This document shows positions 3,214 through 13,593 of a DNA stretch of 64,000 nt, piece after piece. A program made the position numbers and the translations under genes. Under the pieces are notes generated by a model, which saw only the letters and a program-made list of their open reading frames with translations, was not told the DNA's origin and made no database searches. Where the stretch lies: assembly GCF_024223415.1 (NCBI RefSeq), contig NZ_CP100500.1; one strand, given 5' to 3'. Position 1 is the first letter of the stretch, and every line of letters starts with the position of its first letter. This DNA comes from Escherichia coli (GTDB lineage: Bacteria; Pseudomonadota; Gammaproteobacteria; Enterobacterales; Enterobacteriaceae).

Positions 3214-5595
3214 ATGGATACGCCAGACGAAAAGGAACGCATTACATTTCCGCAAGTATCACGACGTAGTTTTTTACAAGCGACTTCCGCGCTTATCACT
3301 TTGCCTTTTATTTCTTCTACCGCAAAGGCGCAATCCCCAGATGCGTCGCCAGAAGTTACAGCTCCAGTAGCTGATAAAGTCGTGCCCACCTGTAGCACAT
3401 TTGACTGCGGTGGTAAGTGCGATATTCGGGCGCATATGCGCGACGGCGTGGTGACGCAAATTACCACACTTCCCGATAACGAACTCGATTCACAAATGCC
3501 GATTATGCGCGCCTGTGTTCGTGGTCGCGGCTATCGTAAATTTGTTTATCATCCTGACCGTTTGAAATATCCGATGAAGCGGGTAGGTAAACGAGGGGAG
3601 GGAAGATTTGAGCGTATCTCATGGGATGAGGCGACGACCTTAATTGCCGATAAACTGAAAAGGATCACGCAACAATATGGCCCGGCTTCACGTTATGTCC
3701 ATGTCGGGACGGCTGTTTCTGGTGGAACATTTTCTGGCGATGCGATGGCGCGTCGGCTGTTAAATTTAACCGGTGGTTATCTTGAATATTATCACTCAGT
3801 TAGTCTGGGTAATACTGCGGCCGCCACGCCTTACACGTATGGCGTGGCGGCCAGCGGTAACTCGATGGATACTCTTCTGGATACCAAACTGGTGATCCTC
3901 TGGGGGCATAACCCAACGGAAACCATATTCGGTCACACCAATTACTATTTTCAAAAAATGAAGCAAAACGGTACACGTTTTATCGTGGTGGATCCGCGCT
4001 ATTCCGACACCGTATCTTCACTTGCCGATCAGTGGATCCCGCTGTTGCCGACCACGGACAATGCGTTGATGGACGCGATGATGTACGTCATTATCAGCGA
4101 GAATCTCCACGATAAGACATTTATCGACACATATATTCTCGGTTTTGATGAAAACTCTATGCCAGAAGGCGTACCAGCCAACGAATCGTTGGTTGCCTAC
4201 CTTTTTGGCGCAAAAGATGGGATACACAAAACGCCGGAATGGGCAGAAAAAATTACCCACGTTCCAGCACAATCCATTCGTCAACTGGCACGCGATTACG
4301 CCACTACAAAACCCGCAGCGTTGATTCAGGGATGGGGGCCACAGCGACATATTTGCGGCGAACGCACCGCCCGAGGTTCAACTTTACTGGCCTCGATTAC
4401 CGGTAACGTCGGCATCAAAGGTGGCTGGGCGGCAGGTTACGGCGGTAGTTCTAATCGTAAATTCTGCGTTGGACCAGATATGCCAGAAAATCCGGTACAA
4501 GCGAAAATCTCGATTATGAACTGGATGCAGGCGGCGGATGATGCTTCTAAAGTTACGCCGCAAGATGGGCTTAAAGGTGTCGATAAACTCGACAGTAATA
4601 TCCGCCTGCTGTTCTCACTGGCAGGTAATTATCTGGCGAACCAGAACCCGGACGTCCACCAGGCCGCGAAGCTCCTTGAAGACGAATCTAAAATAGAATT
4701 CATCGTACTCAGCGATCTGTTCATGACTCCGAGCGCGAAATATGCCGATGTGTTGCTGCCGGAAACCAGCTTTATGGAACGCTGGAATATCGGCGAAACA
4801 TGGGGAACTGCGAGCTATCTTATTCTGTCAGAAAAACTGATTGAGCCGGATTTTGAACGTCGCACCGATTATGACTGGTTGCGTGACGTGGCGAAAAAAC
4901 TGGGTGTCGAAGCCGAGTTCAGTCAAGGACGTGATGAGAAGCAATGGATCGAGCATATCTGGGAGCAAACTCGTCTGGCGATGCCGGATGAAAATTTGCC
5001 GGACTTCGCGACCCTGCAAAAAACACGTCGACATCTTTTCAAAAGCGCGCCGCACATCGCTTTCGAAGCAAATATTCGCGATCCGCAGAATAATCCTTTC
5101 CCGACGCCTTCCGGCAAAATTGAGATCTTCTCTAAGCGTCTTTTTGATATGCAAGATCCAGAAATTCCCGCGCTTTCGCACTATGTCCCTGCCTTTGAAG
5201 GGCCAGAAGATAAACTGACGGCGAAATACCCGCTGCAGCTCATCACCTGGAAAGGGAAAAACCGTGCTAATTCCACCCAGTATGCTAACCCGTGGCTGCA
5301 AGAAGTTCAGACGCAAAAACTCTGGCTGAATCCGCAAGATGCAAAACAGCGCGGGATTAGCGAAGGAGATAGCGTAAAAATTTATAACGATCGTGGTGTG
5401 AGCATTATCCCGGTGGAAATAACCCCCCGTATCATCCCTGGCGTAGTTGCTATGCAGGCGGGGGCATGGTGGCAACCGGATGCACAAGGTATCGATCGCG
5501 GAGGCTGTGCCAATGTACTGAGTTCGACCCGCATTACGGCGCTGGCGAAAGGGAATTCGCATCAAACAATGCTGGTGGAGGTTGAGAAAGCATGA
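3214..5595 (+). CDS. Tat-exported molybdopterin oxidoreductase catalytic subunit, DMSO reductase family (DmsA/YnfE-like), substrate unknown
   Basis: 793-aa ORF with twin-arginine motif SRRSFLQ near the N-terminus, then a CxxxxCxxxC...C cysteine cluster typical of DmsA-type FeS sites; stop overlaps the next start (ATGA at 5592-5595). Confidence 0.85.
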   Translation: MDTPDEKERITFPQVSRRSFLQATSALITLPFISSTAKAQSPDASPEVTAPVADKVVPTCSTFDCGGKCDIRAHMRDGVVTQITTLPDNELDSQMPIMRACVRGRGYRKFVYHPDRLKYPMKRVGKRGEGRFERISWDEATTLIADKLKRITQQYGPASRYVHVGTAVSGGTFSGDAMARRLLNLTGGYLEYYHSVSLGNTAAATPYTYGVAASGNSMDTLLDTKLVILWGHNPTETIFGHTNYYFQKMKQNGTRFIVVDPRYSDTVSSLADQWIPLLPTTDNALMDAMMYVIISENLHDKTFIDTYILGFDENSMPEGVPANESLVAYLFGAKDGIHKTPEWAEKITHVPAQSIRQLARDYATTKPAALIQGWGPQRHICGERTARGSTLLASITGNVGIKGGWAAGYGGSSNRKFCVGPDMPENPVQAKISIMNWMQAADDASKVTPQDGLKGVDKLDSNIRLLFSLAGNYLANQNPDVHQAAKLLEDESKIEFIVLSDLFMTPSAKYADVLLPETSFMERWNIGETWGTASYLILSEKLIEPDFERRTDYDWLRDVAKKLGVEAEFSQGRDEKQWIEHIWEQTRLAMPDENLPDFATLQKTRRHLFKSAPHIAFEANIRDPQNNPFPTPSGKIEIFSKRLFDMQDPEIPALSHYVPAFEGPEDKLTAKYPLQLITWKGKNRANSTQYANPWLQEVQTQKLWLNPQDAKQRGISEGDSVKIYNDRGVSIIPVEITPRIIPGVVAMQAGAWWQPDAQGIDRGGCANVLSSTRITALAKGNSHQTMLVEVEKA

Positions 5596-8029: not shown

Positions 8030-8461
8030 ATGGCTATTGAACGTACTTTTTCCATCATCAAACCGAACGCGGTAGCAAAAAACGTCATTGGTAATATCTT
8101 TGCGCGCTTTGAAGCTGCAGGGTTCAAAATTGTCGGCACCAAAATGCTGCACCTGACCGTTGAACAGGCACGTGGCTTTTATGCTGAACACGATGGAAAA
8201 CCGTTCTTTGATGGTCTGGTTGAATTCATGACCTCTGGCCCGATCGTGGTTTCCGTGCTGGAAGGTGAAAACGCCGTTCAGCGTCACCGCGATCTGCTGG
8301 GCGCGACCAATCCGGCAAACGCACTGGCCGGTACTCTGCGCGCTGATTACGCTGACAGCCTGACCGAAAACGGTACCCACGGTTCTGACTCCGTCGAATC
8401 TGCCGCTCGCGAAATCGCTTATTTCTTCGGCGAAGGCGAAGTGTGCCCGCGCACCCGTTAA
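8030..8461 (+). CDS. ndk: Nucleoside diphosphate kinase
   Basis: 143-aa ORF beginning [15 protein letters not shown], recognised as Ndk. Confidence 0.95.
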
Positions 8462-8610: not shown

Positions 8611-9765
8611 ATGTCTGAACAATTAGTCACACCTGAAAACGTCACCACCAAAGATGGAAAAATCAACCTGCTGGATCTCAATCGTCAGCAGATGCGGGAG
8701 TTTTTTAAAGATTTAGGTGAAAAACCCTTCCGCGCCGATCAGGTGATGAAGTGGATGTATCACTATTGCTGCGACAATTTTGATGAGATGACTGACATCA
8801 ACAAAGTGTTGCGCGGCAAGCTGAAAGAGGTGGCGGAAATCCGCGCACCGGAAGTGGTTGAAGAACAGCGTTCATCTGACGGCACCATTAAATGGGCGAT
8901 TGCCGTGGGTGACCAGCGTGTCGAAACGGTGTACATCCCGGAAGACGACCGCGCTACGCTCTGCGTCTCTTCGCAGGTGGGGTGTGCGCTGGAGTGTAAA
9001 TTCTGTTCCACCGCCCAGCAGGGCTTTAACCGCAACCTGCGGGTGTCGGAAATTATCGGCCAGGTGTGGCGTGCGGCGAAAATCGTCGGCGCAGCAAAAG
9101 TCACCGGTCAGCGCCCAATCACTAACGTAGTGATGATGGGCATGGGCGAGCCGCTGCTCAACCTGAACAACGTCGTTCCGGCGATGGAAATCATGCTTGA
9201 TGATTTCGGTTTTGGCCTGTCTAAACGTCGCGTGACGCTTTCCACTTCCGGTGTAGTTCCAGCGCTGGATAAACTGGGCGATATGATCGATGTTGCGCTG
9301 GCAATTTCCCTGCACGCGCCGAACGACGAAATTCGTGACGAAATTGTGCCGATCAACAAAAAGTACAATATCGAAACGTTCCTTGCTGCGGTGCGCCGTT
9401 ATCTGGAGAAATCCAACGCCAATCAGGGCCGAGTCACTATTGAATACGTGATGCTTGACCACGTTAACGACGGCACTGAACACGCTCACCAACTGGCGGA
9501 ACTGCTGAAAGATACGCCGTGTAAGATCAACCTGATCCCGTGGAACCCGTTCCCGGGCGCACCGTATGGACGCAGCTCGAACAGCCGTATCGACCGTTTC
9601 TCAAAAGTGCTGATGAGCTACGGTTTCACCACTATTGTGCGTAAAACGCGTGGTGATGATATCGATGCTGCCTGTGGTCAGTTGGCGGGCGATGTTATCG
9701 ACCGTACGAAACGTACCCTGCGTAAACGGATGCAGGGTGAAGCCATCGACATTAAAGCGGTCTGA
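8611..9765 (+). CDS. rlmN: 23S rRNA m2A2503 / tRNA m2A37 radical SAM methyltransferase
   Basis: 384-aa ORF recognised as RlmN (YfgB), with the CxxxCxxC radical SAM motif. Confidence 0.95.
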
Positions 9766-10049: not shown

Positions 10050-11063
10050 ATGAATACTGAAGCCACGCACGACCAAAATGAAGCACTTACTACCGGCGCT
10101 CGCCTGCGTAATGCTCGCGAACAACTAGGACTTAGTCAGCAGGCCGTTGCCGAGCGACTTTGCCTGAAGGTTTCCACGGTACGCGACATTGAAGAAGATA
10201 AGGCACCCGCCGATCTTGCTTCAACATTCCTGCGCGGATATATCCGCTCTTATGCGCGTCTGGTACATATTCCAGAAGAAGAACTGCTGCCAGGGCTGGA
10301 AAAGCAGGCTCCACTACGGGCTGCAAAAGTTGCGCCGATGCAGAGTTTTTCCCTCGGTAAACGCCGCAAAAAACGCGACGGCTGGCTGATGACCTTCACC
10401 TGGCTGGTGTTGTTTGTGGTTATCGGCCTGAGCGGTGCCTGGTGGTGGCAAGACCACAAAGCTCAGCAGGAAGAGATCACCACTATGGCCGATCAATCTT
10501 CGGCGGAACTGAGCAGTAATAGCGAGCAGGGGCAGAGTGTTCCGTTAAATACGTCGACAACTACAGACCCGGCTACAACGTCCACGCCGCCAGCGTCTGT
10601 GGATACTACCGCAACCAACACGCAAACACCTGCCGTAACTGCGCCAGCACCAGCTGTTGATCCGCAACAGAATGCGGTTGTTTCGCCTTCGCAGGCAAAT
10701 GTTGATACCGCCGCGACCCCGGCACCAACGGCAACAACAACGCCAGATGGTGCTGCGCCGTTGCCAACCGATCAGGCTGGCGTGACCACGCCGGCGGCTG
10801 ATCCGAATGCGCTGGTGATGAACTTTACTGCCGATTGCTGGCTGGAGGTCACTGATGCTACCGGTAAAAAATTGTTTAGCGGTATGCAGCGTAAAGACGG
10901 TAATTTGAACTTAACCGGCCAGGCACCGTACAAACTGAAAATTGGTGCGCCAGCCGCAGTACAGATCCAGTATCAAGGGAAACCTGTCGATCTGAGTCGT
11001 TTTATCAGAACTAACCAGGTTGCGCGTCTGACCCTCAATGCCGAACAATCACCGGCGCAGTAA
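10050..11063 (+). CDS. rodZ: Cytoskeleton protein RodZ (HTH, single TM, Pro/Thr/Ala-rich periplasmic linker)
   Basis: 337-aa ORF with N-terminal XRE-type HTH, a hydrophobic segment and a low-complexity linker; lies between rlmN and ispG. Confidence 0.9.
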
Positions 11064-11089: not shown

Positions 11090-12208
11090 ATGCATAACCA
11101 GGCTCCAATTCAACGTAGAAAATCAACACGTATTTACGTTGGGAATGTGCCGATTGGCGATGGTGCTCCCATCGCCGTACAGTCCATGACCAATACGCGT
11201 ACGACAGATGTCGAAGCAACGGTCAATCAAATCAAGGCGCTGGAACGCGTTGGCGCTGATATCGTCCGTGTCTCCGTACCGACGATGGACGCGGCAGAAG
11301 CGTTCAAACTCATCAAACAGCAGGTTAACGTGCCGCTGGTGGCTGACATCCACTTCGACTATCGCATTGCGCTGAAAGTAGCGGAATACGGCGTCGATTG
11401 TCTGCGTATTAACCCTGGCAATATCGGTAATGAAGAGCGTATTCGCATGGTGGTTGACTGTGCGCGCGATAAAAACATTCCGATCCGTATTGGCGTTAAC
11501 GCCGGATCGCTGGAAAAAGATCTGCAAGAAAAGTATGGCGAACCGACGCCGCAGGCGTTGCTGGAATCCGCCATGCGCCATGTTGATCATCTCGATCGCC
11601 TGAACTTCGATCAGTTCAAAGTCAGCGTGAAAGCGTCTGACGTCTTCCTCGCTGTTGAGTCTTATCGTTTGCTGGCAAAACAAATCGATCAGCCGCTGCA
11701 TCTGGGGATCACCGAAGCGGGTGGCGCGCGCAGCGGGGCAGTAAAATCCGCCATTGGTTTAGGTCTGCTGCTGTCTGAAGGCATCGGCGACACGCTGCGC
11801 GTATCACTGGCGGCCGATCCGGTCGAAGAGATCAAAGTCGGTTTCGATATTTTGAAATCGCTGCGTATCCGTTCGCGAGGGATCAACTTCATCGCCTGCC
11901 CGACCTGTTCGCGTCAGGAATTTGATGTTATCGGTACGGTTAACGCGCTGGAGCAACGCCTGGAAGATATCATCACTCCGATGGACGTTTCGATTATCGG
12001 CTGCGTGGTGAATGGCCCAGGTGAGGCGCTGGTTTCTACACTCGGCGTCACCGGCGGCAACAAGAAAAGCGGCCTCTATGAAGATGGCGTGCGCAAAGAC
12101 CGTCTGGACAACAACGATATGATCGACCAGCTGGAAGCACGCATTCGTGCGAAAGCCAGTCAGCTGGACGAAGCGCGTCGAATTGACGTTCAGCAGGTTG
12201 AAAAATAA
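11090..12208 (+). CDS. ispG: 4-hydroxy-3-methylbut-2-enyl diphosphate synthase
   Basis: 372-aa ORF recognised as IspG (GcpE). Confidence 0.95.
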
Positions 12209-12318
12209 TAACGTGATGGGAAGCGCCTCGCTTCCCGTGTATGATTGAACCCGCATAGCTCCCGAAACATTGAGGGAAGCGTTGAGGGTTCATTTTTATA
12301 TTCAGAAAGAGAATAAAC

Positions 12319-13593
12319 GTGGCAAAAAACATTCAAGCCATTCGCGGCATGAACGATTACCTGCCTGGCGAAACGGCCATCTGGCAGCGCATTGAAGGCA
12401 CACTGAAAAACGTGCTCGGCAGCTACGGTTACAGTGAAATCCGCTTGCCGATTGTAGAGCAGACCCCGCTATTCAAACGTGCGATTGGTGAAGTCACCGA
12501 CGTGGTTGAAAAAGAGATGTACACCTTTGAGGATCGCAATGGCGACAGCCTGACTCTGCGCCCTGAAGGGACGGCGGGCTGTGTACGCGCCGGCATCGAG
12601 CATGGTCTTCTGTACAATCAGGAACAGCGTCTGTGGTATATCGGGCCGATGTTCCGTCACGAGCGTCCGCAGAAAGGGCGTTATCGTCAGTTCCATCAGT
12701 TGGGCTGCGAAGTTTTCGGTCTGCAAGGTCCGGATATCGACGCTGAACTGATTATGCTCACCGCCCGCTGGTGGCGCGCGCTGGGTATTTCCGAGCACGT
12801 AACTCTTGAGCTGAATTCTATCGGTTCGCTGGAAGCACGCGCCAATTACCGCGATGCGCTGGTGGCATTCCTTGAGCAGCATAAAGAAAAGCTGGACGAA
12901 GACTGCAAACGCCGCATGTACACTAACCCGCTGCGCGTGCTGGATTCAAAAAATCCGGAAGTGCAGGCGCTTCTCAACGACGCTCCGGCATTAGGTGATT
13001 ATCTGGACGAGGAATCTCGTGAGCATTTTGCCGGTCTGTGCAAACTGCTTGAGAGCGCGGGGATCGCTTACACCGTAAACCAGCGTCTGGTGCGTGGTCT
13101 GGATTACTATAACCGTACCGTTTTCGAGTGGGTGACTAACAGTCTCGGCTCCCAGGGCACCGTGTGTGCAGGCGGTCGTTATGACGGTCTTGTGGAACAA
13201 CTGGGCGGCCGTGCAACACCGGCTGTCGGTTTTGCGATGGGCCTCGAACGTCTTGTATTGTTAGTACAGGCCGTTAATCCGGAATTTAAAGCCGATCCTG
13301 TTGTCGATATATACCTGGTGGCTTCAGGTGCTGATACACAATCTGCGGCTATGGCATTAGCTGAGCGTCTGCGTGATGAATTACCGGGCGTGAAATTGAT
13401 GACCAACCACGGCGGCGGCAACTTTAAGAAACAGTTTGCCCGTGCTGATAAATGGGGTGCCCGCGTTGCTGTGGTGCTGGGTGAGTCTGAAGTGGCTAAC
13501 GGCACAGCAGTAGTGAAGGATTTGCGCTCTGGTGAGCAAACGGCAGTTGCGCAGGATAGCGTAGCCGCGCATTTGCGCACGTTACTGGGTTAA
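12319..13593 (+). CDS. hisS: Histidine--tRNA ligase
   Basis: 424-aa ORF starting at GTG 12319 ([10 protein letters not shown]), recognised as HisS. Confidence 0.95.

Follow-up and report, generated by a model that had tools for sequence, protein, structure and literature searches.

The stretch at positions 10530-10830 of the 64,000-nucleotide piece of Escherichia coli DNA analysed here (the window, from contig NZ_CP100500.1) encodes a protein segment that looks repetitive, and it raises a simple question: is the DNA itself repetitive, and does its length change from strain to strain in a way that would make it a strain-typing marker? The original prediction, which placed the stretch in the periplasmic linker of RodZ, had suggested both.

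Identity, composition and conservation of the RodZ linker

The rodZ gene is located between rlmN and ispG. Its parts and its neighbors in the window are as follows.

8030-8461: ndk
8611-9765: rlmN
10050-11063, + strand: rodZ coding sequence, 337 aa plus stop (ORF call, PRK10856, Pfam)
10050-10379, + strand: cytoplasmic part with the helix-turn-helix (HTH) domain and the basic juxtamembrane stretch KRRKKR, about aa 1-110
10380-10517, + strand: transmembrane (TM) helix (about aa 111-133), running on as a juxtamembrane helix to ~aa 156
10518-10808, + strand: Thr/Ala/Pro-rich linker proper, about aa 157-253, predicted to be disordered (AlphaFold2, composition)
10809-11036, + strand: folded C-terminal beta domain RodZ_C, aa 254-329 (Pfam PF13464, AlphaFold2)
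11090-12208: ispG
12319-13593: hisS

The assignment to RodZ held. The ORF at 10050-11063 matched the NCBIfam equivalog PRK10856 with 610.4 bits (cut-off 208) over aa 1-333 of 337. An XRE-type HTH was found at the N terminus (Pfam HTH_25, aa 18-79, 53 bits), identical to the K-12 version, and RodZ_C at the C terminus (PF13464, aa 256-328, 85.5 bits versus a cut-off of 23.9); KRRKKR at aa 104-109 is followed by a hydrophobic stretch forming a single TM helix. Positions 10530-10830 are in frame with rodZ, correspond to aa 161-261 and contain the peptide quoted in the original prediction. The flagged stretch encodes most of the periplasmic linker of RodZ, which lies between the TM/juxtamembrane helix (aa 111-156) and RodZ_C (aa 254-329). 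The published domain limits of the E. coli protein, which binds MreB and is required for rod shape (PMC6946637, PMC6052060), are a cytoplasmic part of ~aa 1-111, a TM helix at ~aa 112-133 and a periplasmic remainder (PMC6946637). In a PDB sequence search, chain k of 6s0k matched RodZ aa 106-134, that is, the TM segment; besides this fragment only distant HTH proteins were returned, and no entry matched the linker or RodZ_C. No other ORF of at least 60 aa overlaps 10530-10830 on either strand, and an Rfam search of the 64-kb window found no family in or near the linker stretch. The sole gathering-level Rfam match in the window was the small RNA sroE (RF00371, 114.6 bits) at 12208-12299 (+), between ispG and hisS.

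The description of the linker as Pro/Thr/Ala-rich and of low complexity was equally well founded. Across the 101 residues encoded by 10530-10830, Thr (23), Ala (20) and Pro (16) make up 58%, the maximum over 3,240 101-aa windows drawn from all long ORFs within the 64-kb window (median 19%, 99th percentile 35%), and every top-ranked window in that control comes from the RodZ linker itself. Sequence entropy is 2.5-2.9 bits in the linker versus 3.4-3.9 bits in the folded parts. Thr, Ala, Pro and Ser abound in the segment, which is acidic, nearly free of Lys and Arg, and devoid of aromatic residues and Cys. AlphaFold2, run on a 93-sequence alignment, assigned no secondary structure (no DSSP elements) to about aa 157-250, with a pLDDT of 38-46. 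The same model contains HTH helices at aa 15-71 (pLDDT 56-79, as 10-residue block means), one long helix at aa 111-156 that comprises the TM segment and the periplasmic juxtamembrane region (pLDDT 84-92 in the TM part) and a seven-strand beta domain with one short helix at aa 254-329 (pLDDT 88-96). With its biased composition, predicted lack of structure and drifting sequence, the segment fits an intrinsically disordered low-complexity linker. Such a region has already been described in the literature: the periplasmic part of RodZ begins with disordered regions and ends in a folded domain of nine strands (PMC6946637).

Conservation was assessed across Enterobacterales with rodZ sequences drawn from 120 species-representative genomes through a degenerate DNA pattern for the HTH peptide TVRDIEEDK, which yielded 92 complete proteins. 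Among 93 Enterobacterales, the linker, measured from the end of the TM helix to the start of RodZ_C, spans 105-136 aa with 26 distinct lengths (SD 6.1). The cytoplasmic part spans 107-113 aa (SD 0.6), the TM helix 23-24 aa (SD 0.15) and the C-terminal domain 76-82 aa (SD 2.5). The mean frequency of the top residue per position is 0.55 in the linker and 0.84-0.91 elsewhere. The Pro, Thr, Ala and Ser fraction of the linker is 0.43-0.65 in every species, with Lys and Arg at 1%, Asp and Glu at 10.5%, and aromatics plus Cys below 0.01%. Across species, the composition and approximate length of the linker are kept, and its sequence is not. The HTH pattern also occurred at the far end (5160-5186) of a 5.2-kb contig, URUI01000105.1, from a metagenome-assembled genome named 'uncultured Collinsella sp.'; this reflects either contamination or chance.

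Preceding the linker, the juxtamembrane segment aa 131-149 is conserved in the 93 species, with W131-W133, H136 and Q140 invariant. The K-12 protein differs from that of the window at H136R, T229A and A250V; Arg136 (window 10455-10457) was seen in the rodZ of the K-12 derivative JW5503, and all other sampled E. coli proteins carry His136. Within the linker, three short islands stand out among the 93 species.

10533-10547, + strand: QS[IV]PL, aa 162-166 (Q162 in 91/93 species, P165 in 86/93, L166 in 88/93)
10671-10706, + strand: NAVV[SA]PSQA[NP]VD, aa 208-219 (V211 in 91/93, P213 in 91/93, S214 in 88/93, Q215 in 92/93)
10761-10769, + strand: LPT, aa 238-240 (P239 invariant)

Because it contains these islands, the linker is not a featureless spacer. 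The second island is also nearly invariant within E. coli, S212P aside. Between species, alignment gaps cluster at aa 155-158, 184-187 and 221-232.

Length classes and polymorphism within E. coli

rodZ is a single-copy gene in 5,425 of 5,426 complete E. coli genomes; one genome had no match to either rodZ or ispG. Gene length was read from 60 genomes evenly spaced down the ranking of rodZ matches. The 1014-nt form was found in 45 (identity to the window at least 99.0%), the 1008-nt form in 12 (about 96%) and the 1011-nt form in two (about 94.6%), and one row was the broken assembly P276M. Extended to ~119 sampled complete genomes and 28 cluster members (~147 alleles), the survey returned three protein lengths only: 337, 335 and 336 aa.

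P276M (NZ_CP044293.1) had been considered as a divergent allele on account of its 85%-identity rodZ. The gene, with 81-85% identity to the window, is split and frameshifted there and rlmN is a pseudogene; the genome is most likely an assembly rich in errors. In strain A22 (NZ_CP028753.1), the ispG match covers just 70% of the gene and is divided between two places.

A search with the linker alone placed 3,682 genomes at 99% identity or above, 447 at 95-99%, 1,098 at 90-95% and 198 at 80-90%, so that 1,296 genomes fall below 95%. With the N-terminal 391 nt, the C-terminal 249 nt or ispG as the query, no genome fell below 95%, P276M aside (81%, N-terminal query). In the 60 sampled rows these identity bands map cleanly onto the three length classes, from which genome shares of ~76% (1014 nt), ~20% (1008 nt) and ~3.6% (1011 nt) may be estimated, as a projection from the sample rather than a full count. 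In the linker-only sample, a single identity class accounted for 29 of 60 genomes, and the Simpson diversity of identity-and-length classes was ~0.72, to be taken as a rough lower bound.

Two small in-frame indels separate the length classes.

10521-10526, + strand: 6-bp (2-codon) indel, codons 158-159 (codon and nucleotide alignments; placement ambiguous by a few bases); present in 1014-nt alleles, missing from 1008- and 1011-nt alleles
after 10631: 3-bp insertion (GCC/GCG, Ala), in 336-aa alleles only

The 6-bp indel is the commoner of the two. It falls in the between-species gap zone at aa 155-158, 4-9 nt upstream of position 10530, where the original prediction had begun the linker. Neither site lies in a repeat context in the nucleotide alignment. 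The proposal that linker length varies between strains was therefore correct in that lengths differ between lineages; the variation amounts to only three lengths that arise from two small indels.

Ten retrieved E. coli alleles were aligned with that of the window. In these 11 alleles aa 1-133, comprising the cytoplasmic part and the TM helix, are identical, and all amino acid changes but one lie within aa 136-251; the exception, A261S in the EC958 allele, is the sole change in RodZ_C. The cluster members gave a similar picture. RodZ sequences fall into two 90% protein clusters of 2,856 and 1,054 distinct sequences, and all 28 members read at full length are 337, 335 or 336 aa long. In this set, every one of the 18 columns with common polymorphism maps to aa 155-250. 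The rare variants number 36, of which 25 fall in the linker, where its share of the protein would predict 36% (binomial p = 5e-5). The P0021 protein, which has 337 aa and sits in the 335/336-aa cluster, was examined as a fourth combination of length and sequence and proved to be an ordinary K-12-like allele. The linker is the fastest-changing and most polymorphic part of rodZ within E. coli. The alignment of rodZ alleles that the original prediction had called for thus shows a linker that is not invariant, so the constancy across strains that it had named as counterevidence was not found.

In UniProt, the window protein corresponds to RODZ_ECO55, the 335-aa allele to RODZ_ECO27 and the 336-aa allele to RODZ_ECO7I. 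These entries are named for strains 55989 (phylogroup B1), E2348/69 (B2) and IAI39 (F), and the three allele types correspond to deep E. coli lineages.

Divergence blocks and their explanation

Differences between the allele types are concentrated in two blocks.

10500-10607, + strand: block A, aa 151-186; 21 substitutions and the 6-bp indel, separating the window/K-12 type from the 335/336-aa types
10614-10667, + strand: block B, aa 189-206, with the 3-bp insertion after 10631; 336-aa alleles only

Block A contains 12 amino acid replacements in 36 codons; block B has ~14 substitutions within a stretch of roughly 55 nt, the rest of the gene being of the 335-aa type. A compensated frameshift was considered as the source of the changes grouped at aa 174-183; the alignment resolves them as plain substitutions with no paired indels. 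In block A, dS is 0.46-0.53 and dN 0.18; in the folded domains dS is 0.02-0.07 and dN is 0. Between allele types, dN/dS (Nei-Gojobori) is 0.24-0.33 in the linker, with block A reaching no more than 0.39, and in the other gene segments it ranges from 0 to 0.10, being 0 in all comparisons except one. The linker values indicate relaxed purifying selection rather than positive selection. The explanation we favor, and consider very probable, is that the linker is a disordered tether under weak constraint, which would account for both the segment and its polymorphism, with three length classes and no slippage. Most positions being weakly constrained, substitutions and small in-frame indels pile up in the linker, and this accumulation explains why variation within E. 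coli is greatest in this part of rodZ.

Silent sites carry a further signal. At fourfold degenerate sites, the window differs from the 335-aa allele at 8/71 positions in the linker and 3/116 in the domains (Fisher p 0.022), from the 336-aa allele at 14/67 and 2/116 (p 2e-5) and from E. albertii at 28/66 and 22/107 (p 0.003). Between the 335-aa and 336-aa alleles the counts are 7/75 in the linker and 1/117 in the domains. Fourfold divergence within E. coli is accordingly 0.11-0.21 in the linker and 0.02-0.03 in the domains, 4-12 times higher in the linker; between Escherichia species it is 0.42-0.46 and 0.21-0.26, or about twice as high. Relaxed constraint on the protein alone does not predict raised silent divergence, so a contribution must come from recombination, old alleles or weaker codon selection. 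The candidates are short-tract recombination, old alleles, weaker selection on codon accuracy where residues are unconstrained and, for the comparisons between species, misalignment.

It is possible, at a probability that we put somewhat below even, that the divergence of the linker is mainly mosaic, with tracts imported from divergent Escherichia or retained as ancient alleles, rather than the product of drift in situ. The sharp limits of blocks A and B point in this direction, as does their silent divergence of 0.46-0.85 beside adjoining flanks at 0.00-0.07; so does the pair of 335-aa and 336-aa alleles, which are nearly identical at fourfold sites in the domains and differ in the linker. 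The states NNNQSQ, D167 and P212 of the 335-aa type are common to E. albertii and two other Escherichia species representatives, and because of this sharing block A of the window/K-12 type looks derived. Strain CS5L (NZ_CP158311.1, rodZ at 174-1184) combines a 5' half of the 336-aa type, including blocks A and B, with a 3' part of the linker that matches strain 3347558 (A250 and silent states at codons 243 and 246); its rodZ looks recombinant, that is, a mosaic allele. Two points weigh against this reading. Block B has no donor among the Escherichia sequences listed, which do not include E. fergusonii, E. marmotae or E. ruysiae, and comparisons between species, too, show roughly double the silent divergence in the linker, so part of the silent excess must be put down to the region in general or to the alignment. 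The mosaic reading adds to the explanation by a weakly constrained disordered tether and does not exclude it.

Two records, NZ_JAATUR010000003.1 and CP089930.1, are both titled Escherichia coli and serve as representatives of separate species. Their RodZ domains are nearly identical to the E. coli protein, with a silent divergence of 0.33-0.42 and strongly different linkers, and by these sequences they are probably cryptic Escherichia species.

Diversifying selection, for example through contact with a partner that itself varies or with an agent entering the periplasm from outside, would also concentrate amino acid changes in the linker, where they do cluster strongly, block A included. We regard it as highly improbable: dN/dS stays below 1 even in block A, silent and replacement changes cluster in the same blocks, composition is kept across the 93 species, and RodZ is an inner-membrane protein that is not exposed at the surface (PMC6946637).

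The claim of repetition at the nucleotide level did not survive examination. TRF at its lowest score setting found nothing in the linker except the following feature, the sole tandem-repeat call in the gene.

10720-10738, + strand: CGGCAACAA x 2.1, a 9-bp unit, TRF score 31

No E. coli indel maps to this call in the allele alignment. A search for dispersed repeats (seed 7) returned imperfect pairs of 10-15 nt and nothing more, and the longest exact direct repeat in the linker, 8 nt, equals the median of dinucleotide shuffles. Repeated 6- to 9-mers were no more frequent than in dinucleotide shuffles (of which a fraction of 0.10-1.0 attained the count observed) or in shuffles of codon order (0.39-1.0), and among all 301-nt windows of the 64-kb window the repeat content of the linker ranks at the 13% level. 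The peptide is repetitive without repetitive DNA because the codons for Thr, Ala and Pro are in each case spread roughly evenly over three or four synonyms (for Thr, ACG 7, ACA 6, ACC 6 and ACT 4, with Ala and Pro similarly spread). Since a repetitive-looking peptide is not repetitive DNA, no slippage-driven variation in length is to be expected, and the suggested proneness to length change through repeats finds no counterpart in the two indels, neither of which is the gain or loss of a repeat unit.

That the locus behaves like a variable-number tandem repeat (VNTR), with repetitive DNA, slippage and many length alleles for strain typing, can be dismissed as extremely improbable, for although gene length does differ (1014/1008/1011 nt) and the peptide looks repetitive, repeat content equals that of shuffled sequence, both indels lie outside repeats and the three lengths track allele types, not strains. 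Considered as a tandem-repeat typing locus, it has neither a tandem array of a definable unit (TRF, shuffles) nor many whole-unit length alleles (three lengths in the sampled genomes). It shares with the VNTR loci of E. coli MLVA an in-frame length polymorphism within a gene; it differs from them in having no repeat unit and only three length states, which follow allele types. Among the papers searched, none linked rodZ or yfgA to VNTR or MLVA typing. The proposed use as a strain-typing marker thus falls away, as a few alleles dominate and strains are not separable. RodZ length (337/335/336 aa), together with blocks A and B, tells three allele types apart, and rodZ length is at best a coarse marker of lineage or allele type.

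Role of the linker and relation to known systems

Pro/Ala/Thr-rich spacers are a recurring feature of periplasmic and secreted proteins, among them the proline-rich spacer of TonB, the Ala-Pro hinge of OmpA, the FtsN linker and the Pro/Thr boxes of secreted glycoside hydrolases. Like the RodZ linker, these are low-complexity extended tethers from a membrane anchor to a distal domain, which differ from species to species in length and sequence but hardly in composition; they are not homologous to it. In TonB and OmpA the spacer is a genuine array of short periodic units, (EP)n(KP)n and (AP)n, respectively; unlike these, the RodZ linker has no periodicity.

E. coli K-12 RodZ (YfgA) is the same gene and the same region, and its architecture, disorder and dispensability agree with the published description (Bendezu 2009; Ikebe 2018; review PMC6946637). 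RodZ variants 1-142 and 1-155 still yield rods, so most of the periplasmic part is dispensable for rod shape (PMC6946637). The periplasmic domain is needed for a normal number of MreB polymers and for coupling to wall synthesis (PMC6052060), and the disordered region is reported to promote RodZ dimerization or self-interaction (Ikebe 2018, as summarized in PMC6946637). The ectodomain of Bacillus subtilis RodZ, for which NMR secondary structure is available (Pereira 2015, as cited in PMC6946637), resembles that of E. coli in having a disordered stretch followed by an all-beta fold, with about nine strands compared to the seven predicted here by AlphaFold2; sequence similarity between the two linkers is not detectable. 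The region does not differ in substance from the published account of RodZ; new here are the population counts for each of the three length classes, the arrangement of the divergence in blocks and the conserved islands.

Judged from its anatomy, the linker would act as a flexible, extended and acidic tether through which RodZ_C could contact partners or peptidoglycan some way beyond the inner membrane. The polymorphism would then be a by-product of weak constraint. The short conserved islands would be the only parts of the linker with sequence-specific roles and the likely sites of sequence-specific contact, including the self-interaction reported in the literature. A more tentative extension, which we hold to be rather unlikely as a whole, is that the islands are linear motifs that dock a periplasmic partner or mediate RodZ self-interaction, with the variable tracts providing spacing and forming a recombination-tolerant hotspot. 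If this is true, the raised silent divergence and the block mosaic mark a local hotspot inside an otherwise strongly conserved core gene. The islands are in any case cheap and specific targets for mutagenesis, through which the reported self-interaction of RodZ or its contacts with partners may be located.
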